This document shows positions 1 through 53,560 of a stretch of DNA of 64,000 bases, piece after piece (position 1 is the stretch's first letter; every line of letters begins with the position of its first letter). The notes beneath the pieces are model-generated. The model was not told the origin of the DNA. It made no database searches and saw nothing but the letters and a program-made list of their open reading frames with translations. The translations under genes were made by a program, and so were the position numbers. The stretch is from a virus, in IMG/VR virus record IMGVR_UViG_3300036823_000120, positions 30,583 through 94,582 of that record. The stretch is one strand, 5' to 3'.

Positions 1-44
1 CAATTTCAAATGTTACTTTCATTTTGATTCCTAAAAGGATGAAG

Positions 45-147
45 TGGACACGTCGGGATCGAACCCGCACACGCGATTTAGTGCCATCTTACTTGCCAAT
101 GGTACTTACTTATTAGATTTCTCATTGGATTAATCGCAATCGTGCCC
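45..147 (-). ncRNA. tRNA-like RNA with Ala-type acceptor stem (G3:U70, A73) and T-loop, lacking a normal D arm and anticodon arm
   Basis: Minus strand GGGCACG...CGTGTCC-A forms a 7-bp acceptor stem. GGGTTCGATCCC T-arm is imperfect. Internal helix GCGATT/AATCGC encloses ~55 nt. Confidence 0.55.
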
Positions 148-286
148 AAAAGAAGGAACCGGACATTATAAGCCACTGTCCGATTCCTCGCAAACTTTTA
201 ATTTTACATAACTATTACTCCTCTCATATTAATAGACATAGTGTTTTATTTTAGTATAACGATACTAACCTAGTTCTAGGTTACAG

Positions 287-1276: not shown

Positions 1277-1752
1277 GCAGCACCAGCGTAGGTGTAGTTA
1301 TCGTATACGTCGCAACTCATCCAACCATAAGAAGCAGGATAAGCAGCACAACCAGCAGAGGAGGCATAACTACCAGAAGGAAGAAATTGAAAATCATTGC
1401 CCGTATGCCCAAACATTTGCCTTGAGGCACGAAAGCTTGCACAGGATTGGGCGGCTTGAGTAAGACCGGCGTCGAATATGTACGGTCGCAACCCATGCAT
1501 CGCCCTCTTCGCATTGACTTCTGATAGAGCTTCATTCCCTCCCTCCGTAGGCTGTGAGTTGAAACTCACGGGTTGTGAGTTGAAACTCACGGGTTGTGAG
1601 TTGAAACTCACGGGTTGATAAGCCGGCTGTTGAAAATTACTTTGGCCTTGAACCGGATAATACTGAACCCGATTCCTACGAAGCAGTGGACCACTGTAAG
1701 CATCCACACTGGCCAAAAGCACAACCAAGCTACTCAGGATCAAACGCATCAT
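1225..1752 (-). CDS. secreted CAP/SCP-like domain protein
   Basis: RBS GGGAG before ATG at 1752. Signal peptide MMRLILSSLVVLLASVDA. CAP-like ALSEVNAKRAMHGLRP...LTQAAQ...FGH and YAGAAWAMGGDGKRY. Three QPVSFNS repeats. Confidence 0.75.
   Translation of the reverse strand: MMRLILSSLVVLLASVDAYSGPLLRRNRVQYYPVQGQSNFQQPAYQPVSFNSQPVSFNSQPVSFNSQPTEGGNEALSEVNAKRAMHGLRPYIFDAGLTQAAQSCASFRASRQMFGHTGNDFQFLPSGSYASSAGCAAYPASYGWMSCDVYDNYTYAGAAWAMGGDGKRYMHIFVR
1551..1617. repeat. 21-bp tandem repeat x3, coding QPVSFNS
   Basis: gggttgtgagttgaaactcac is repeated directly. Confidence 0.9.
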
Positions 1753-2071
1753 CCATCTCCCTTGACAAGTGAACACTTGACTGCACATTGCATCTAGCAC
1801 AGAACAACACCAAGTTATCCTGACTATTTGTGCCACCTTTACAAAGAGGTGTCACATGCTCTATTGTGGCTCTAGCCACTTTTTCAGTACGATCAGGTGA
1901 TAAAAGGTAATAGTTACTGTAACCACCAATCACCCAACCTAATAAGAGCTTATCACGATCTAGTGCAATTTTCACTTGACAAAGATGACAACACTCATTT
2001 TGTTTGGCCATAAGCATACGTTGTATTTGATACTTACGTCTGCTATGTATCTTCTTTCTCTCTTTACTCAT
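1730..2071 (-). CDS. HNH endonuclease
   Basis: CHLC ... ATIEHVTPLCKGGTNSQDNLVLFCARCN. Confidence 0.9.
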   Translation of the reverse strand: MSKERKKIHSRRKYQIQRMLMAKQNECCHLCQVKIALDRDKLLLGWVIGGYSNYYLLSPDRTEKVARATIEHVTPLCKGGTNSQDNLVLFCARCNVQSSVHLSREMDDAFDPE

Positions 2072-3245: not shown

Positions 3246-3386
3246 TACCTCCGGTCGGACTCGAACCGACAGTTTCTCACAAGACCCTCACAACAAGTGA
3301 GTAGCTTTACAGGTGCCATGCGTCCAACGCTCGTGAGAGACACTTGGGTCTCGACCAAGCTGCTATACCCTTTTGCATACGGAGGT
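3246..3386 (-). tRNA. tRNA-Leu(GAG)-like RNA with a 72-nt variable region
   Basis: Acceptor ACCTCCG/CGGAGGT-A, D stem TGC/GCA, anticodon arm CTTGG-TC GAG AC-CCAAG, T arm GTCGG-TTCGAGT-CCGAC. Variable region is 3271-3342. Confidence 0.75.
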
Positions 3387-3880: not shown

Positions 3881-4558
3881 TCATGCAACATACCTCTTAG
3901 TTCCAATTTGGACTGTGCAACCTTTGGCAAGCTTTTTACTACTTAACAATGTCGAGCTAACTTTAAAATTTGTATCACGAATGCCGCGAAAGGCAATGCT
4001 TTTCAGCGAAAACATTGGCTTCATCATTTTAATCACATCTACTATGTTTGATTCTTGACGGAACCAAGCATAATATTGTACATCAAGATGCCAAAGCTTT
4101 TGAAGCCGCCAGTTTGAAAAAACATCAAACAATTGTGCTCGTTCGGCTCGACTTGCTCGTAAGATCATATGTCGAATCGGTTGAGCAGATAGAATATTTG
4201 GACGTTGACTAAGATATTCAGGTGTTATATCTATCGTGGTATAAGCATCACCTAAGCGGCCATTAAAATAACACAAGTTTCGCTTTTCTTCAAGCTGATT
4301 TGGAGATTCTTGAGCATAATTTTTGTTCCAATTATGAATAATCATATCCAATGCTGAAACAATATTTGGTAAAAGCTCACCAGTAGAGAACGTTCTAATG
4401 ATCGTTTTAGTATTGATCCACTGCCGCAAAATAGACGATAGTTCGTGGTCGCGTGACTCGTCTGATTCGTCCAGACAATCACAGTAGATGAGGATGCCCG
4501 TGTCATCTCCATCGTTAATCGAGACTTTCCAATCAGGCAACAATGTCGGCATGTCCAT
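3881..4558 (-). CDS. TIGR02996 repeat-companion-like domain protein
   Basis: GGAG RBS before ATG 4558. DGDDTGILIYCDCLDE resembles the PDDxxRLVYADWLEE consensus. It is followed by ILSAQPIRHMIL and LRR-like segments. Confidence 0.55.
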   Translation of the reverse strand: MDMPTLLPDWKVSINDGDDTGILIYCDCLDESDESRDHELSSILRQWINTKTIIRTFSTGELLPNIVSALDMIIHNWNKNYAQESPNQLEEKRNLCYFNGRLGDAYTTIDITPEYLSQRPNILSAQPIRHMILRASRAERAQLFDVFSNWRLQKLWHLDVQYYAWFRQESNIVDVIKMMKPMFSLKSIAFRGIRDTNFKVSSTLLSSKKLAKGCTVQIGTKRYVA

Positions 4559-5809: not shown

Positions 5810-6168
5810 TATTTTTCCTTTTTAACTCCTTCACACGCAAGCTTCAACTCTTCAATCTCATCGCTAGTTAATGGAGTTACTTTTTTAATATCTCCTGTTA
5901 AAATCTGATCTGCTCTTGCAACTGAAATACGTTTTACAACTCTTAATAAAAGTTTGCGAATTGGTGCTGTTTTAGGTAAAACTGTTTCAAGCTCTTCAAA
6001 CAATTTTCCAACTGCAATATGTGGTGGTAAAACTGTTGGATCAATTCCAGATAGTTGTGATTCAGCTTTTGCAAACCATTTATCAAATAACTTCTTTATC
6101 AATCCAATAAGCCAGGGACCAATTATTTGCATAATTAATCCAAATATTACAGCCCATGTCATTAACAA
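5809..6168 (-). CDS. membrane-anchored hypothetical protein
   Basis: AAGGAG RBS. Hydrophobic N-terminus WAVIFGLIMQIIGPWLIGLI. Confidence 0.7.
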   Translation of the reverse strand: MLMTWAVIFGLIMQIIGPWLIGLIKKLFDKWFAKAESQLSGIDPTVLPPHIAVGKLFEELETVLPKTAPIRKLLLRVVKRISVARADQILTGDIKKVTPLTSDEIEELKLACEGVKKEK

Positions 6169-19715: not shown

Positions 19716-22349
19716 CTAGTTTCTAGAATCACTTGTTACTCCCATTTCATGGGCTTTTGCAGCTTCTTGTTGAGCTTGTTTCATTTCTTCTAGTACCAAA
19801 CCCATACTCAAACTTTGCAAATCACGTTTGCGTTTGAGATTTTTTAATACATAAGCATCAGTTGGAAGATGGAGCAAATCAATTATAGTAGCTCCTCTTT
19901 CTACTGACATACCTGCCCTATGTATGCGATCTTCTGATTGCAATCTAGACTCACCATTGAAATCATTGCTGAAATAAATGATGGCTTTTGATGCCGTCAG
20001 TGTCAGGCCCATTCCCGCTGATCCAGCGTGCCCAACAAAAGCTATCTTTTGATCGTATTGCTTAGGATTCTGAAAGACTTTCAAGAATTCTACGTTATCT
20101 TTTGGCAAGAAGTTACCATATGGCACCCATCCACGTCCGTCCACACGCATCACTTGCCAACCAAGCTTAGTCACATGGTCACTAACTCGATCAATTGTTC
20201 CTGTGAAAGCTCCATAGATAACAATTCTATTCTCATCTTCAAAATCATCTGAGAGAAGTTCTGTAAGAGTATCAAATTTTGGACTATCGACTGTTTTTAC
20301 TTCTCTCTTAATAACATTAGTTGTTCCGCGGCCTTCGCAAGCAGGACACTTAATTTTTTCATTAAGATCGTTATCGAAAAGCTCTCTATTGCCTTTACAA
20401 GTTGTACAAGTTGCAGTAGATTCGACAGTTTCAATATATTGAAAGCCATCTGATAACTCACGAAGCTTTGTAAGAGCTTCAATTGCATTGCGACAACCAA
20501 CTTGTATCAAACTAGCCGCACGAATCATCGGCAGACTTGGCTTTATATTAATTTCTCGATATACCTTATCAGGTAGATCAAGACAATCTTTCTTGTGTTG
20601 AACTAATACAAGTCCACTCATTCGCCGATAAAGTTGACTAATTTCATCTTTCAAAGCTATATATTCATGGAAGTTTTCTTTGTCTTCTTTGGCATAATGA
20701 TTAGCATGAGAACTAAGCTTACCACATTTATTACAGATTGCTTGACCACCATCTCGCCATGCAATGAATTTCGGGAACCGACCACCAGTGATATCACCAA
20801 CGTATTCAGTAACAGCTAATCGTTCCTTGAACTTGTTGACATCACCTTCAATCAAGAAGCCTGGACAAGCAGTTTCACATTGCCAATACCAATCTACAGG
20901 GGACTTGGGAGCGGGAGAACCACTCATAAGTACAATGTATGCATCGTGTCCATAGTTATTACGCATACTTTCAGCAACATGAAAAGCTGATTGTGAGCGT
21001 TGAGCAGTTGGTGTCTTTAATTTTGAAGATTCATCGAATATAATTCCACGAGGTGGCATTTTCCGTGGAATCCAATTTTCAACTGTTTTCTTCAATTCAT
21101 CATAAGTCATAAATATTGGACGTATGAAAGATTTCCAATTCCAAAACTCAAGACGAACACTTGCAATTGATGATTTTGTTCCAATGTACCACCAATCTGC
21201 GATACCACTTCGTTCCATTGCCTCTATTGAGGCAAGAGTCTTTCCACAATTATGTACTACAATACCATTTGCGACAAAATTTCTATAAGGATCATCACAA
21301 ATAACATCATAGACAAATAATTCTCCATTATTTTCAATACTTATAATTTTATCTTTATGTGGTATAAATTGACATTTCTCAGTATGTAGATTTACATAAT
21401 TTGTTTGGCCATGTAATTTTGCATGCTTACTACTTGAACTTAATAGTTCCAAGTTTTCAATTTTATTATCATTTTTAATTTCATTTTTATGATGAACTAT
21501 CTCATTTTCTTTAATATATCGTCCAAGATGTTCTTCCATAATTAAAATGTGTTCATATACTCCACCTGTAGACCATCTTGGATGCTTGTTTTTTAAGCCT
21601 CCAACTCTAATATAGCCATCTTTATCTTTCCATTTACCATTAACTAAAATTTCATCACCAATATTTAGCTTTTCTGCTGAAATATAAGTATTATTATTTA
21701 CAGCAATTTCGTGATCTAAAGTTACACAAATTTCATAACCTAATTTTGTTTTTATTTTTAAAGTAGACTTTTTACCTTTGCTTAAGACATTTTTAATTTT
21801 ATTTAACTTTAATATCCCAGCACAATTACTTCGAATATAAGTTTCTATTCCTAAATCCCAGCATCTGCCTTTTAAATTATGAAATTTCTCAAAAAGATTT
21901 TTTAGTTTTATCTCAAATCCTTTTCCAGCTCTATTTACATGCACGAGTGCTTCACCATCAACGCATCCCATTTCCGCAGCTAGTATACATTGCTTACGTA
22001 GCAAAATATGACCAATCTCATATTTTTGATGCGTATATACAGGTCGTTGAAAAGTTAGCTTATCAACAAATGATTCAAGTGAAGCGTCGTATCGAGAAAA
22101 AGGATTCTTACCTTCTAAGTGTTCAATACGAAATTCATTTCGTCGTGACTTATTAACGCGCCAAACTTTCATTGGATTATCTTCGTCTCTACCAAGCCAT
22201 TTTGAACCTTGCATCACTTTCAATTTATCTTTGAATTCGAAAGCTGAACTAATATAATAATACTTTGAATCTTCATAAATAGTAGCTGGATGACGAAACT
22301 GCTTTCCTTCAAACTTAGTTTGTCTTTCAGCTATAAAATTAATTGCCAT
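19716..22349 (-). CDS. SNF2-like SF2 helicase containing an intein
   Basis: AEMG/CGKT Walker A, FDES, MSGSP, GMGLTL, QSEDRIHRAG. Confidence 0.92.
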   Translation of the reverse strand: MAINFIAERQTKFEGKQFRHPATIYEDSKYYYISSAFEFKDKLKVMQGSKWLGRDEDNPMKVWRVNKSRRNEFRIEHLEGKNPFSRYDASLESFVDKLTFQRPVYTHQKYEIGHILLRKQCILAAEMGCVDGEALVHVNRAGKGFEIKLKNLFEKFHNLKGRCWDLGIETYIRSNCAGILKLNKIKNVLSKGKKSTLKIKTKLGYEICVTLDHEIAVNNNTYISAEKLNIGDEILVNGKWKDKDGYIRVGGLKNKHPRWSTGGVYEHILIMEEHLGRYIKENEIVHHKNEIKNDNKIENLELLSSSSKHAKLHGQTNYVNLHTEKCQFIPHKDKIISIENNGELFVYDVICDDPYRNFVANGIVVHNCGKTLASIEAMERSGIADWWYIGTKSSIASVRLEFWNWKSFIRPIFMTYDELKKTVENWIPRKMPPRGIIFDESSKLKTPTAQRSQSAFHVAESMRNNYGHDAYIVLMSGSPAPKSPVDWYWQCETACPGFLIEGDVNKFKERLAVTEYVGDITGGRFPKFIAWRDGGQAICNKCGKLSSHANHYAKEDKENFHEYIALKDEISQLYRRMSGLVLVQHKKDCLDLPDKVYREINIKPSLPMIRAASLIQVGCRNAIEALTKLRELSDGFQYIETVESTATCTTCKGNRELFDNDLNEKIKCPACEGRGTTNVIKREVKTVDSPKFDTLTELLSDDFEDENRIVIYGAFTGTIDRVSDHVTKLGWQVMRVDGRGWVPYGNFLPKDNVEFLKVFQNPKQYDQKIAFVGHAGSAGMGLTLTASKAIIYFSNDFNGESRLQSEDRIHRAGMSVERGATIIDLLHLPTDAYVLKNLKRKRDLQSLSMGLVLEEMKQAQQEAAKAHEMGVTSDSRN
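21249..21965 (-). mobile_element. intein (239 aa) with HNH endonuclease
   Basis: Starts CVDGEAL, block B VTLDH, ends VYD...NFVANGIVVHN|C. Internal YEHILIME...VHHKNEIKNDNKIENL. Confidence 0.92.
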
Positions 22350-26235: not shown

Positions 26236-28983
26236 ATGAATCCTATGCGTTGTGAAGCAATTGCACGCTTATTGATTGCAAAAACACATCCAGACCTTGC
26301 TAAGCTTTACACGCCTGAGATGGAAGTACAAGTTCTTGCTGCTAAAGATGATGGTGAGATGATTAAAGAACCAGGCTTTCAAGGTAAGGAATGGAGAGCT
26401 TTTACAGATGGCTTTAACACATGGAAATCAATAAGAATTCCATATAAAGCTAACACAGAACCTGAATATGAAGATAAGCCAATAAGCTTTTCACTTGAAC
26501 ATCATGCTGAAGGTATTGGCATGACTGGTTGGAATTGGAAGAAAAGAACATCTCAATGGGTAGCTTATGACTTCGATGCAATTGTCGGACACTCTGATAA
26601 GCACTCTAAAAAGCTTACAGATAAGGAACTTGAAGAAGTCACAGAGCAACTTAAGAGGATTCCATTTTCCACTTTACGCTTATCAACGTCTGGAAAGGGC
26701 TTACATCTCTATGTATTTCTTGATTCCATTCCTACTGCTAATCACACTGAACATGCTGCTCTTGCTCGTAGTGTCTTAAGTATGCTTAGCGGTATGGTTG
26801 GAGCAGATTTCACCACAAGAGTAGATATTTGTGGTGGAAATATGTGGGTATGGCATCGTAAAATGTATACATCATATGTATTACATAAAGATAACATAAG
26901 CTTTGGTGATAAGAATCAAGGTCTTAAGCTTATTAAGCAAGGTGAAGTGTTAAAAGAAGTTCCAGCTAATTGGCGTGATCATGTTCCCGTTATATCTCGC
27001 ACATGTAAAACAACTATACCTTCATTTGTATATGATTTAAATACAACTGATCCCGATAAGCTTTTCACAGAGTTGTCTAGTCAACGTCCTAAAACTCCAC
27101 TTGATCTAGAGCATAAAAAGCTTATAGAATGGTTATCGCACAATAATTGTCGCTGGTGGTGGGATAATGATAACTGGATGCTTGTAACTCACACATATCA
27201 CTTAAAAGAAGCCCATCTTGCTTTAAAAATGAGAGGTAAATACGAAACTTTAGCGACTGGAAGTGAAAGAGGAGGAGATCACAATGCATTTTGTTTTCCT
27301 GTGCGTGGCGGAGCTTGGGCTATACGCCGTTATTCTCTAGGAGTTAAAGAAGCTGATACATGGGAACAAGATGGTTCCAGATGGACGAGATGCTACATCA
27401 ACAGGGATATTGACCTGTCTTTAGCTGCTAGAATGTATGATGGAGTAGAACATGAAAAAGGTGGTTTCATCTTTAGAGATGCTGAATCAGCCGTAAAAGC
27501 TTTGTCAGAAGTTGGAGTTAATTTTGACCCACTACCAGCTTGGATTACTGGCAGAAAAACAATTTTAAAGCCAGTTAGAGGCGATAATAAGCTTTTGGTG
27601 ACAATTGAAGCAGAAGAAGGCAAGGACGATGCAACAAAGATGTCAGGATGGTATATTGAAAAGAAGTTTTGGCGAAGAATTTTTAGAGTAGATCTTCCTA
27701 CAGTACCAAGTGGAGATAACAAAGAAGATTATAATGATTTAATTCGCCATGTAAGTAACGAAGAAGGTGCAGATGCTGGGTGGATGCTTAGGCGAGAAGG
27801 ACATTGGTGTGATGAACCAATCGAACACATTAAAATTGTACTTAGAAGTATGGACCAAGATCAGCGATCTATTGATCAAATCCTAGGCGGATCAATTATT
27901 AATGCTTGGAAGCTAGTAAATCATCCTTTTCAGCCAGAATATCCAGGAAATCGTGAATGGAATCGTGATGCTGCACGCTTTATAGTTGCTCCAACAGCCG
28001 ATGCTGAGCAACTTAGCTATCCAACATGGCAAAAAGTCCTTGAAAATTGCGGTAAAGGTCTTGATTACGATATAAAAGATCATGTATGGTGTAAAGAAAA
28101 TAGTATAAGCAATGGTGCCGATTACTTAAAGCTTTGGTTAGCATGTATGTTCAAGTTCCCTGATCGTCCTACACCATATTTGGCCTTTTGGGGCGATCAG
28201 GATAGCGGAAAAAGCACATTTCACGAAATGTTAAATTTGCTTTTTGAAGGCGGTACAATGGGTGCTGATACTGCACTCACATCAAAGGAAGGCTTTAATG
28301 GTGAATTACTATCTGCAATTCTATGTATAGTTGAAGAAACTAGCATGAAAGGTAGCACATTAGCTAATAGAAGAATCAAAGATTGGGTAACAAGCCCTTA
28401 CATCACGATTCACGCAAAGAACTGTACTCCATATCGTGCAAAAAATTACACGCATTGGATACAAACAGCTAATGAACAAGAAGATTGTCCAGTATTTCCT
28501 GGAGATACAAGAATTACGTTAATTCATGTATCTGAATTACAAAAAGATAAAATGATCCCAAAAGACGAATTACGAACATTGCTCCAAAAAGAGGCTCCTG
28601 ATTTCTTAGCAAGTGTCCTTGCTATTGAAATTCCTAAGTCAAATAGTCGTCTAGCGCTCCCAATTATTGAAACTTCTGATAAAAAGAGACTTGAACAGAA
28701 AAATATGTCTCTTATTGAGCAATTTATCTTAGAAGAAGTTGCTTGTGTAGATGGTTATTTAATTGCTGCAACTGAATTTCACGAGAAATTTAGTTGTTGG
28801 GTTGATGACAAGGAACGTGGAAATTGGTCAAAGACCAAAATTGGTCGAGAGTTACCTAATAAGTTTCCTCGGGGTCGTATTGGTAATTCCAACGAAACTG
28901 GTTATGGGAATATGACGTTCGATAAAGAAGCCAAACCCGCCAGAAAACTTATTTTAAAAGGTATGTACTTACGCCCGGAGTAA
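26236..28983 (+). CDS. primase-helicase (AEP-like N-terminus plus SF3/D5-like P-loop)
   Basis: YDFD and STSGKGLHLY, then Walker A GDQDSGKST, IVEE, TAN, GDTR. Confidence 0.88.
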   Translation: MNPMRCEAIARLLIAKTHPDLAKLYTPEMEVQVLAAKDDGEMIKEPGFQGKEWRAFTDGFNTWKSIRIPYKANTEPEYEDKPISFSLEHHAEGIGMTGWNWKKRTSQWVAYDFDAIVGHSDKHSKKLTDKELEEVTEQLKRIPFSTLRLSTSGKGLHLYVFLDSIPTANHTEHAALARSVLSMLSGMVGADFTTRVDICGGNMWVWHRKMYTSYVLHKDNISFGDKNQGLKLIKQGEVLKEVPANWRDHVPVISRTCKTTIPSFVYDLNTTDPDKLFTELSSQRPKTPLDLEHKKLIEWLSHNNCRWWWDNDNWMLVTHTYHLKEAHLALKMRGKYETLATGSERGGDHNAFCFPVRGGAWAIRRYSLGVKEADTWEQDGSRWTRCYINRDIDLSLAARMYDGVEHEKGGFIFRDAESAVKALSEVGVNFDPLPAWITGRKTILKPVRGDNKLLVTIEAEEGKDDATKMSGWYIEKKFWRRIFRVDLPTVPSGDNKEDYNDLIRHVSNEEGADAGWMLRREGHWCDEPIEHIKIVLRSMDQDQRSIDQILGGSIINAWKLVNHPFQPEYPGNREWNRDAARFIVAPTADAEQLSYPTWQKVLENCGKGLDYDIKDHVWCKENSISNGADYLKLWLACMFKFPDRPTPYLAFWGDQDSGKSTFHEMLNLLFEGGTMGADTALTSKEGFNGELLSAILCIVEETSMKGSTLANRRIKDWVTSPYITIHAKNCTPYRAKNYTHWIQTANEQEDCPVFPGDTRITLIHVSELQKDKMIPKDELRTLLQKEAPDFLASVLAIEIPKSNSRLALPIIETSDKKRLEQKNMSLIEQFILEEVACVDGYLIAATEFHEKFSCWVDDKERGNWSKTKIGRELPNKFPRGRIGNSNETGYGNMTFDKEAKPARKLILKGMYLRPE

Positions 28984-29279: not shown

Positions 29280-29849
29280 ATGCGTAAAGTCATTGGGATA
29301 GGACATCAAAAGGGAGTTGGCAAAGATCATTTTGTTAATTATTGTTTTGATGTCTTACGTACAGAGACTCGTAAGCTTAAGATTGTACGACGTGGATTTG
29401 CTGATAAGCTTTATCAGTTTCTTCATAGTACATATGCTTGGGCAGGTTTTCGAGAGAAAACTTATTATGACGAAAAGCCTGAACGAAAGAACGAAGTCCT
29501 AAAGAATGGTAAAACTCCTCGTCAAATGCTTATTGATGTAGGAACACCTGTTATGCGTGCCTATGATAATGATATTTGGATTAATGCTTGTCTAAAAGAT
29601 GAAGATTATGACATTTTATTTGTAACTGATCTTCGTTTTCCAAATGAATTTATAGCTATAGAAGAAATGGGAGGTTATTTGATACGTATTATACGTCCTG
29701 GATTACCTATTCCAACTGATGTAGCTGATACTGCTCTAAACGGATGGGAAGAACGATGGAAGTTCACATTCCAAAATAACGAAGATAAAAAGAAGCTTTA
29801 CACTTTAGCTGAAGCTTTTACATTGACTCATATTTTGGAAAGAAAATAA
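29280..29849 (+). CDS. deoxynucleoside monophosphate kinase
   Basis: GHQKGVGKD, FADKL, TPRQML..VGT, TDLRFPNE. Confidence 0.88.
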   Translation: MRKVIGIGHQKGVGKDHFVNYCFDVLRTETRKLKIVRRGFADKLYQFLHSTYAWAGFREKTYYDEKPERKNEVLKNGKTPRQMLIDVGTPVMRAYDNDIWINACLKDEDYDILFVTDLRFPNEFIAIEEMGGYLIRIIRPGLPIPTDVADTALNGWEERWKFTFQNNEDKKKLYTLAEAFTLTHILERK

Positions 29850-51736: not shown

Positions 51737-53560
51737 TTACGCAGCAGGCCCACGAGTCTGTGAACCGCCACTAGTTGGATTAGTGTCTGGATTTTGTGAA
51801 TTCTGCTTTTCAATTTTTGATTGAGTAGGATCACCGCCAACGCCTCTAGCAGCACCTACACCAGAACTTTGAGCAGCAGCAATTTGAGCCATACGTTCAG
51901 TGTATTCTTCTTCAGCAATTGGCACAACTGTTTTACCATCATAGCCACGAGCATAAGAAGCTGTTGTTTTATCAACGATGCCTGCTTCAACGTCCATTTG
52001 AATTTCTTTTGCATCACTTGTTATATAACCTGCATCATCTATTTCTTTATCAATTTTAATTAAAACTTCAGCTCGAACCTTACCTGAAAGCATAGTATGA
52101 GCAATCTGTTTACCAATTTCTTTTGCAAAAGTTAAAGATGGTGCTGCCCCTTTAAGGTCTTTAAGAGATTTCGCTTCATTTTGCCTATCCGAGTCACTTT
52201 TAACATCATATTTACGCGGATAATTGACCTCTGCAACTTCTTTTGAATTTTCATACATTGCCCATAATTTAGCGATACGACGTTCGCCATATTCAAGTTC
52301 AAGGCCAATTCCGCTTAGACCATTTTCTAGACCTGACTTATCTTCTTTCTTTGAATCGGCACTTGCATGTTGTGGAGCAACATTCGACATTGCTAAATTA
52401 ATAATTTGACGAAGTTCATCTTTCATTTGAGCTTGCTTTTCCATGCTCGCCATCATTGGAGCACTTGGAGGAGCAATAAAATCAGGAGCATTTAGACCTT
52501 TACCGTATCTTCTACCAGTAATACCACCAGTTTCGACTTCAGAACCACTTGCAGATGTCCCAGCTAAGCTTTGAGTACCTCTTTGAGCAGCATCAAGCTT
52601 TGAGCGGTCAATAAGTGGATTATTTATATCAATTTTAGGTGTTATAGGCACGCGACTGAATGTTTGTTCAGTTAATTGGTCATATTGCTCAACATAAAAT
52701 ACAAAATTAGCTGTTAAAGCATAATTTAAATCAGCAGAAGCTAAATTTAGCAAGCCAATTTGATAATTACCAATATCTTCCATCAAACTTCCACCAATAT
52801 CCATCATAACAAATGGAATTTCAGTGAGATTCAAGTCATATTGATTAATAGACTTAACTTTTTTCTGATCAATTGGATCTTGTTCATTTTCGTCAATATA
52901 TTCGATCCAATCTTCAACTGAAACATAGCCATCTTCATTAATCCAAAAGTGACGATATACTTCATTATAAGCAATTGGAAGATTAGATTCTGGGTCAACT
53001 TCTAAAAGATTAGTGCGAAGAAGTAGATTCGTGAATATTTCATCATTTTCAGCATATCTTGAGTCCCAACTCAAGATATTTTCTCTAGTATAATAATATA
53101 AATAAGGTCTTTTGTTCTTATTTAAATCCAACCGAGGATCATCAATACGACTTTTATCAACAATTACACCAACTTTACCCATAATCATAAGTTCAGTCAA
53201 AACATCTTGACCAATATAAGCATTCATTGAAGAACCATGAAGATCAACACCAGCCGTAAAGCCTGTAATTGCTTCTTGGTAATTGTCAGGACCACCTAAT
53301 CGATTAATTTCGCTCATTCGTTGGTAGATACTGTTTCTTATCTCATTAATAGCTGCACGAGCAAATGATGGCGAATATGCCATTGCTAAGCGTCGTTGAT
53401 AATTTGGATCACTTTCACGAATAGAAAAACGTTGTAAATAACGATGAATGAAAGCATCACCAGAGTTATAGCAAAGTCGCCACTTGTAAAAATCATCAAA
53501 CTCCAGACAATAATCCGGATGTCTTATCTCTGTTATAAGTCTTTTCTTTTTCTTTGCCAT
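51737..53560 (-). CDS. portal protein
   Basis: RHPDY...YLQRFS.RE...YQRRL, VDLHGSS, RPYL..Y, EIPFV. Follows the terminase. Confidence 0.88.
   Translation of the reverse strand: MAKKKKRLITEIRHPDYCLEFDDFYKWRLCYNSGDAFIHRYLQRFSIRESDPNYQRRLAMAYSPSFARAAINEIRNSIYQRMSEINRLGGPDNYQEAITGFTAGVDLHGSSMNAYIGQDVLTELMIMGKVGVIVDKSRIDDPRLDLNKNKRPYLYYYTRENILSWDSRYAENDEIFTNLLLRTNLLEVDPESNLPIAYNEVYRHFWINEDGYVSVEDWIEYIDENEQDPIDQKKVKSINQYDLNLTEIPFVMMDIGGSLMEDIGNYQIGLLNLASADLNYALTANFVFYVEQYDQLTEQTFSRVPITPKIDINNPLIDRSKLDAAQRGTQSLAGTSASGSEVETGGITGRRYGKGLNAPDFIAPPSAPMMASMEKQAQMKDELRQIINLAMSNVAPQHASADSKKEDKSGLENGLSGIGLELEYGERRIAKLWAMYENSKEVAEVNYPRKYDVKSDSDRQNEAKSLKDLKGAAPSLTFAKEIGKQIAHTMLSGKVRAEVLIKIDKEIDDAGYITSDAKEIQMDVEAGIVDKTTASYARGYDGKTVVPIAEEEYTERMAQIAAAQSSGVGAARGVGGDPTQSKIEKQNSQNPDTNPTSGGSQTRGPAA

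Follow-up and report, generated by a model that had tools for sequence, protein, structure and literature searches.

Genes for tmRNA are found in about 2% of phage genomes (PMC9004378). Forms that lack the coding sequence (CDS-less tmRNAs) are described in plastids, in mitochondria and in the Mycobacterium phage DS6A (PMC11915505). The DS6A RNA consists of the tRNA-like domain (TLD) and is termed a “TLD only” (CDS-less) tmRNA; it is attributed to Mao et al. 2009 in the passages of PMC4131195 and PMC11915505 that cite it. Inhibition of tmRNA by DS6A-like TLD RNA is independent of whether this RNA can be charged (PMC4131195, PMC11915505). The idea of a phage tmRNA that consists of the TLD is not new, one such RNA having been published. 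The DS6A gene was located at positions 28478–28557 of JN698994 and serves below as the main reference for a small tmRNA-like element found in an uncultured phage.

The source phage is an IMG/VR virus record of 94,582 bp that is rated complete and has a G+C content of about 36%. Its genes include a family A DNA polymerase, an intein-bearing helicase, a gpA-type terminase and a primase. It is far from all cultured phages, the terminase being about 25% identical to its best matches. The window, i.e. the whole stretch of 64,000 nt that was analyzed, comprises bases 30583–94582 of the 94,582-bp record. The element sits at the window start on the gene (minus) strand, inside a 430-nt non-coding gap of the tRNA region. 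A canonical tRNA-Ile(UAU) is present in the same gap, with a spacing of 139 nt from this tRNA to the element. None of the tRNAs of the phage, the two canonical ones included, has an encoded CCA, and in this they resemble the element. No tmRNA was found elsewhere in the 94.6-kb genome by ARAGORN or by a genome-wide search with the tmRNA model, and neither SmpB nor a CCA-adding enzyme was found among the phage-encoded proteins. A free-standing HNH endonuclease open reading frame (window 1730–2071, minus strand; PHROG HNH families, E-value = 1e-10) is present within the tRNA region, 1.6 kb upstream of the element.

The element is 103 bases in length and occupies the minus strand from window position 147 to 45, with RNA position 1 at window position 147. 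A first-pass annotation, based on the nucleotide sequence alone, had described an Ala-type acceptor and a T arm together with a long-range helix, and no D arm or anticodon arm. The architecture is as described. The acceptor GGGCACG/CGTGTCC is paired at seven of seven positions (G1-C72, G2-C71, G3:U70 and four more Watson-Crick pairs) and is followed by discriminator A. The 3-nt spacer (A8 U9 U10) and the GCGATT/AATCGC helix after it (termed P2, RNA positions 11–16/70–75) were also confirmed, with an interior of 53 nt as against the ~55 nt claimed. P2 has 6 bp, or 7 bp if U10:G76 is added, and UGU(G) lies between it and the T arm. The interior around the internal hairpin is A/U-rich and has a 7-nt direct repeat, AAGUAAG. 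Both of the competing interior pairings that had been proposed do exist, but the thermodynamic ensemble gives a probability of ~0 for CCAAUG/CAUUGG and favors the hairpin 46–50/60–64. Table 1 lists the features of the locus.

Table 1. Features of the element, its surroundings and the related loci. Positions are those of the window unless a genome or locus is named.
Feature	Position	Strand	Basis or remark
Acceptor 5′ strand GGGCACG, RNA 1–7, with G3 of G3:U70	141..147	-	pairing probability 0.85–1.0
Acceptor 3′ strand CGUGUCC, RNA 96–102, with U70	46..52	-	pairing with RNA 1–7
Discriminator A, trailer CUUC, no encoded CCA	45..45	-	sequence
Linker A8 U9 U10	138..140	-	A8 tmRNA-like; first 10 nt the same as in phage tmRNA L065
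Long-range helix P2, 5′ strand, RNA 11–16	132..137	-	probability ~0.68
P2 3′ strand, RNA 70–76	72..78	-	thermodynamic ensemble
Internal hairpin, RNA 42–67, 9-nt loop with UUGGCAA	81..106	-	probability ~0.63 (pairs 46–50/60–64)
T arm: G:A mismatch, 4-bp stem CGGG/CCCG, 6-nt loop UUCGAU	53..68	-	probability ~0.77
Sigma-70-like promoter site TTGCGA-17-TATAAT	165..193	-	10/12 matches, top site in 5.2 kb
11-bp hairpin with 11-nt loop, then UUCUUUU, ending directly at G1	148..187	-	stem in miRNA-model alignments; ensemble
Shine-Dalgarno AGGA (32–29), AUG (22–20), 17-codon open reading frame	1..33	-	13–23 nt after discriminator
Canonical tRNA-Ile(UAU)	359–286	-	same 430-nt gap as element (ARAGORN, covariance model)
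tRNA-like gene, anticodon-arm region of 24 nt instead of 15, 41.8 bits	genome 28087–28166 (L002 2088–2167)	-	hairpin and U-rich tract directly before
tRNA with ~70-nt variable region, 37.2 bits in targeted search	3246–3386	-	missed by whole-window gathering run
Two tRNA-like genes in L001/L002	genome 29862–29942, 29651–29724	-	perfect acceptors, U8-A9, normal D arms
Full tmRNA of phage G006, 298 nt, tag AKPQLALAA, 107 bits	G006:C1:14474–14773 (L061)	-	tmRNA model

The GGTTCGA motif of the T arm is present as had been claimed, but the loop is not canonical: the best pairing has 4 bp and a 6-nt loop, which is one base short, with a G:A mismatch at 49:65 and only four Watson-Crick stem pairs. One added C restores a canonical T arm, the form seen in loci L021/L030. 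As the missing loop base falls in a run of C residues, an assembly error is conceivable. Since the phage's own tRNA-Ile is likewise mismatched at 49:65, the length of the T loop is the sole oddity of the T arm. The folding energy of the whole element is ordinary (z = −1.46). In the minimum free energy fold from the putative transcript start to the open reading frame the tRNA-like fold is lost; this carries little weight, as minimum free energy folds are unreliable at long range and this one had no tRNA control.

No paralogue of the interior was found elsewhere in the genome that would point to a repeat or MITE origin. The palindrome GATTAATC in P2, considered as a protein site, is not enriched (3 found and 1.8 expected). 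The 10-mer ATTAATCCAA, which covers part of P2 and its loop side, was counted 24 times with one mismatch or less, compared to 11.4 expected, and none of 100 shuffles reaches 24. Its sites are spread over the window, e.g. at 125–134, 6134–6143, 9892–9901, 29576–29585 and 52937–52946, and the excess may be codon-related.

The genome was scanned with a strict pattern: G53 followed by TTCRA, a T stem of four Watson-Crick pairs of which three or more are G-C, and, within 260 nt, an acceptor of 7 bp with no more than one G-U. In the 94,582-bp genome this gave four loci: the two canonical tRNAs, a tRNA with a giant variable arm, and the element. The expectation from 300 genomes shuffled by mononucleotide within blocks of 2 kb is 0.02 such loci per genome. 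The element is therefore genuine and tRNA-derived, beyond chance. A looser definition was uninformative, with ~16 matches per shuffle.

Standard programs do not call the element. ARAGORN at default settings and Rfam at gathering scores, two of the tools named in the first-pass annotation, both miss it; only at an 85% threshold does ARAGORN report a spurious intron-containing His tRNA there. ARAGORN in the -m mode shows no tmRNA and no tag at the element, and no permuted or two-piece tmRNA was found by this program. The tmRNA covariance model (RF00023) gives 10.2 bits (E-value = 0.045) in a 450-nt search and does not reach its cut-off of 47 bits. This score is unstable, with no match in a 121-nt search of the element and none at E ≤ 10 genome-wide. 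The tRNA model (RF00005, cut-off 29 bits) has no match at E ≤ 10 for the element stretch, and position 8 is A. The interior has stop codons in all frames, and its only open reading frames are 7 and 15 codons in length, neither with an Ala-Ala end.

The element and the DS6A RNA are alike in several respects. Both are phage-encoded, unannotated and intergenic. Their acceptors are of 7 bp with G3:U70 and are followed by discriminator A; CCA and a tag frame are not encoded in either, and in both a helix (P2 in the element) closes a short body just before the T arm. Unlike the element, the DS6A RNA has a D-loop analogue of 14 nt that includes GG and UCGAC, its T arm combines a stem of 5 bp with a loop of 7 nt, and it scores 43.2 bits on the tmRNA model. 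In the element the linker is 3 nt and the T loop 6 nt in length, the A/U-rich interior spans 53 nt, and the unstable score of ~10 bits is ~33 bits below that of DS6A; the other small tmRNA-like RNAs score 22–31 bits. The D-loop analogue (12–14 nt with GG and UCGA(C)) is kept in DS6A and in L048, L065 and G006, and is absent from the element. In a gapless comparison with L065 there are 7 identities in 13 positions, with GG changed to GA and UCGAC to UAAUC. Full-length tmRNAs (L065, G006) differ further in having pseudoknots, a resume codon, a tag frame and a score at or above the Rfam cut-off, none of which is found in the element.

Other reduced or tRNA-shaped RNAs are more remote. The CDS-less tmRNAs of jakobid mitochondria and of plastids are also naturally shrunken to near the TLD and without a tag frame, but they co-occur with SmpB and retain the TLD core, whereas that of the element is eroded (PMC11915505). 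The t-elements of plant mitochondria (PMC1920247) are similar in having an acceptor and T-arm mimic beside mRNA ends that is usable by RNase P and RNase Z; they differ in that the analogy is functional only, and the Ala identity set is not known to be a t-element feature. The Bacillus cereus pseudo-tRNA “tRNA-Other” is also tRNA-shaped and non-decoding, but it is chromosomal, retains the cloverleaf and is not of the Ala/tmRNA type (PMC3399842).

The sequence features of the element point to descent from the TLD of a tmRNA, rather than from a tRNA-Ala. G3:U70 and A73 are characters of tmRNA type. Position 8 of the element is an A followed by UU, as in tmRNAs, where tRNAs have a near-invariant U. 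The T arm of the element matches the tmRNA consensus sequence, and a single helix that encloses the entire interior and ends a few bases ahead of the T arm is the topology of tmRNA, unlike a cloverleaf. Homologues were sought in public genomes, metagenomes and viral contigs with a pattern of the T arm and 3′ acceptor strand that allowed a 7-nt loop. The pattern is a 25-nt consensus (24 nt in the element) derived from the element itself. The matches thus share the 3′ end by construction, and it is their make-up that constitutes evidence. Among the 39 loci from genomes and metagenomes, tmRNAs and sub-threshold tmRNA-like RNAs make up the majority, and only one locus is a tRNA-Ala. The main classes are called tmRNAs (L029/L044, L047), sub-threshold tmRNA matches (L039, L057, L048) and two families of ~70 nt and ~217 nt. 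Among viral contigs the sole match is L065, an IMG/VR phage tmRNA of 342 nt with the tag VENQVFALAA. L065 has an acceptor stem and first 10 nt identical to those of the element and a near-identical T arm, although its phage is unrelated to the source phage.

A related phage also has a tmRNA. G006 is a 110-kb IMG/VR phage that was reached via a 42%-identical exonuclease and has ~10 other genes in common with the source phage. The 5′ connector of its full tmRNA (Table 1) is identical to the equivalent place of the element in 10 of 11 bases, which is weak (shuffle p ~0.04). No synteny was found between the G006 tmRNA locus and the element locus. The weakness of this homology and the non-syntenic positions count against reading the element as a reduced tmRNA derivative. 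The likeness to the tmRNA tRNA-like domain that the first-pass annotation noted holds with respect to descent, which is tmRNA-like, but the D-loop analogue, a full T loop and a stable tmRNA score are missing.

Two loci found in the search are tag-less themselves. L048 (4635–4752, plus strand; the same as L049) is a 118-nt tag-less tmRNA-like gene directly after a tRNA on a short metagenome contig; it retains a GAUUGG..UUCG connector and a long P2 hairpin and scores 26.8 bits. L041 (about 4126–4272, plus strand) is a ~147-nt tag-less tmRNA-like gene, also directly after a tRNA on a short metagenome contig. It is part of an array of at least 10 tRNA genes and has the CUUC trailer in common with the element.

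Members of the ~70-nt family (L019, L024, L025, L030–L032, L035, L036, L042, L043, L046, L050, L052–L054) come from CPR bacteria (Saccharibacteria, Parcubacteria), Verrucomicrobiia and other MAGs. They fold into an Ala-type acceptor (G3:U70), a 4-bp hairpin with a UGGN loop, a 6-bp hairpin and a T arm. The 6-bp hairpin has a 9-nt loop with YUUACCA, and ten pairs show compensatory changes across the family. These RNAs score 25–31 bits on the tmRNA model, are uncalled by ARAGORN or by Rfam at cut-off, and lie among housekeeping genes, not adjoining smpB. The ~217-nt family (L020, L022, L023, L026, L027, L034, L045, L055), from Pseudomonadota and Rhodothermales MAGs, has the same Ala acceptor, an encoded CCA and a conserved GUCUAAGA. 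L020, the only member scored on the tmRNA model, gives 14.7 bits. It closes a 12-tRNA array adjoining a GOLLD RNA (114 bits, cut at the contig end), and because of this array and the adjoining GOLLD RNA the L020 contig is probably of phage origin. In L029 (3097–3503, minus strand; the same as L044) a tmRNA gene is followed 24 nt on by a second T arm and 3′ acceptor strand, a duplication that is the signature of an island integrated into ssrA.

Relatives of the locus itself were not recovered. The cultured-phage database has no near or distant match to the element, apart from tRNA-Ile look-alikes. No relatives were found in IMG/VR with the flanking proteins, nor was an exact 24-mer of the element; an alignment of neighbor proteins to JGI metagenomes gave none. 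TerL relatives of 45%–48% identity are fragments without the locus, and one neighbor protein, the product of the gene 0.7 kb upstream of the element, is 75% identical to a protein on a Logan contig. The locus is not present in any relative retrieved. A 20-mer from the anticodon arm of the tRNA-Ile gave a single match, which is inside a coding region and was dismissed as chance.

The element is not the only unusual gene of its array. Four further aberrant tRNA-like genes are on the same strand, at 28.0–34.3 kb of the genome (Table 1). The tRNA with the ~70-nt variable region has perfect acceptor, anticodon and T stems and a loop UCGAGAC that reads Leu(GAG) with C33; ARAGORN labels it as Val with a 57-nt intron. 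In the pair from L001/L002, hairpins without a T loop replace the T arm. The anticodon loop reads UUAAAAU in one of the pair, and in the other a 3-nt “anticodon” loop on a 7-bp stem rules out decoding. All five aberrant elements, including the tmRNA-like one, keep perfect 7-bp acceptors, and three of the five directly follow a hairpin. This upkeep of acceptors argues against simple neglect of the array and hints at selection, be it for processing or for another role. It keeps alive both a decoy function and a role in RNA processing. The tRNA cluster of G006 (20108–21014, minus strand; L012) also has an 86-nt D-arm-poor tRNA-like gene with the anticodon loop CUGUAAA, which matches tRNA-Sec best (23.7 bits).

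Upstream of the element there is a plausible sigma-70-like promoter site, from which transcription would start ~10–12 nt before G1. The number of promoter-like sites in the region is not above chance. The hairpin and U-rich tract that end at G1 look like a terminator of the tRNA-Ile unit and overlap the promoter-like site. On the other side, the 17-codon open reading frame is followed by the gene of a TIGR02996-like small protein, which runs past the window start. Two small downstream proteins (L001 911–1480 and 3–266, both on the minus strand) have the motif RLVFADWLDE(N/Q)G, which is presumably typical of the TIGR02996 repeat-companion domain. The gene at L001 911–1480 is preceded by a 17-codon upstream open reading frame with a good Shine-Dalgarno site.

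Acceptor and T stem make up the 12-layer stack that is measured by RNase P and RNase Z. From the established biochemistry of tRNAs and minihelices, it is inferred that the element may be processed, CCA-added and alanylated. It could be a working tag-less mini-tmRNA or an Ala-minihelix decoy, although this is unlikely. Such an RNA, matured, CCA-added and alanylated via G3:U70/A73, would titrate SmpB, AlaRS or EF-Tu and dampen host trans-translation, as proposed for DS6A. The Ala identity set and minihelix geometry are intact, there is a promoter-like site of its own, full tmRNAs are present in phages (the related G006 and the unrelated L065), and inhibition of tmRNA by DS6A-like TLD RNA is a published precedent (PMC4131195, PMC11915505). 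Set against these are the short T loop, the tmRNA score so far under that of DS6A, and the absence of the GG/UCGAC D-loop analogue, which is kept in the other small RNAs and full tmRNAs examined. The suggestion of the first-pass annotation that anticodon nucleases might be the target of a decoy is baseless, as the element has no anticodon loop. A role as processing signal, similar to plant mitochondrial t-elements, has likewise a rather low probability. The stack would be kept for cuts by RNase P and RNase Z, so that the upstream transcript ends in a protective hairpin and the 5′ end of the downstream mRNA is set, and the released RNA would have no task. The perfect acceptors of the five aberrant elements on the gene strand, whose other arms vary, are in accordance with this, as are the hairpin and U-rich tract directly before three of the five (the tmRNA-like element included), the Shine-Dalgarno site and open reading frame start 13–23 nt past the discriminator, and the t-element precedent (PMC1920247). 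However, such a role leaves the upkeep of P2 and of the G3:U70/A73 set unexplained, and with a promoter just upstream a 5′ processing step would be of little use.

The element might also be an active member of a phage set of at least five remodelled, non-decoding tRNA-like RNAs with perfect acceptors, but this is doubtful. It would then be matured and alanylated. Because the loop that binds SmpB is lacking, the target would be something other than trans-translation; e.g. an acceptor-end-directed host defence enzyme would be soaked up, or Ala would be fed to a non-ribosomal reaction. It is very unlikely that the element is a decayed ordinary tRNA-Ala which lost its D and anticodon arms by internal rearrangement. 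G3:U70 and A73 are present, the inner loop UUGGCAA resembles an Ala(GGC) anticodon loop (~0.05 such patterns are expected by chance, by our own estimate), and pseudo-tRNAs are common in phage tRNA arrays, one being annotated in Aeromonas phage Akh-2. But A8 replaces U8, the tRNA model gives no match, one helix encloses everything as in tmRNA, and the loci that share the 3′ end are overwhelmingly of tmRNA type. Highly improbable is a remnant of an integration site (attP or imprecise excision), in which the 3′ end would come from a tmRNA or tRNA gene of the host and the matching 5′ strand would be a chance product. Duplicated tmRNA 3′ ends are indeed found with islands, as in L029/L044, and ssrA fragments in prophages are reported (PMC9004378). 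The element however has a perfect 7-bp 5′ strand and a tmRNA-like AUU in the expected geometry, and it lies on the gene strand within a tRNA array. An attP remnant was rejected on the presence of this 5′ acceptor strand and on the genome being without a tyrosine integrase (no PF00589 match) or a serine recombinase (no PF00239 match).

The best explanation, which is put forward tentatively and falls a little short of an even chance, is that the element descends from a phage tmRNA gene, has been strongly reduced with loss of the tag, and is probably in decay or diverted in function. The Ala-type acceptor stem, the T arm and the body-closing helix would remain from the ancestral tmRNA; the D-loop analogue, pseudoknots and tag frame would have been lost and the T loop shortened. 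Transcription may start at the promoter-like site ~12 nt upstream or reach the element by read-through of the tRNA-Ile unit. RNase P may still recognize the stack and cut before G147, and RNase Z and a CCA-adding enzyme may act after A45. Processing would then free an RNA of ~103 nt, together with the 5′ end of the mRNA downstream. With the SmpB-contacting D-loop analogue missing, a function of the element as tmRNA or SmpB decoy has most likely been lost. Signs of degeneracy are the 6-nt T loop, the lack of GG/UCGAC, and 10.2 bits that do not reproduce, compared to 43.2 bits for DS6A. An acceptor and a 6–7-bp P2 that are perfectly paired and G+C-rich in a genome of 36% G+C are, on the other hand, unexpected for an old pseudogene.

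The element represents a known kind of RNA, in a worn or diverted copy, rather than a new kind, and alone, as a singleton, it opens no new question. Tag-less mini-tmRNAs have hardly been studied as a phage tool; for the one published case (DS6A) a block of host ribosome rescue is proposed. The element illustrates the degree of erosion or re-purposing that such a gene can undergo with its alanine acceptor and processing geometry still in place. Together with the neighboring remodelled tRNA-like genes, it makes this phage a good test bed for distinguishing decoys, processing signals and debris.
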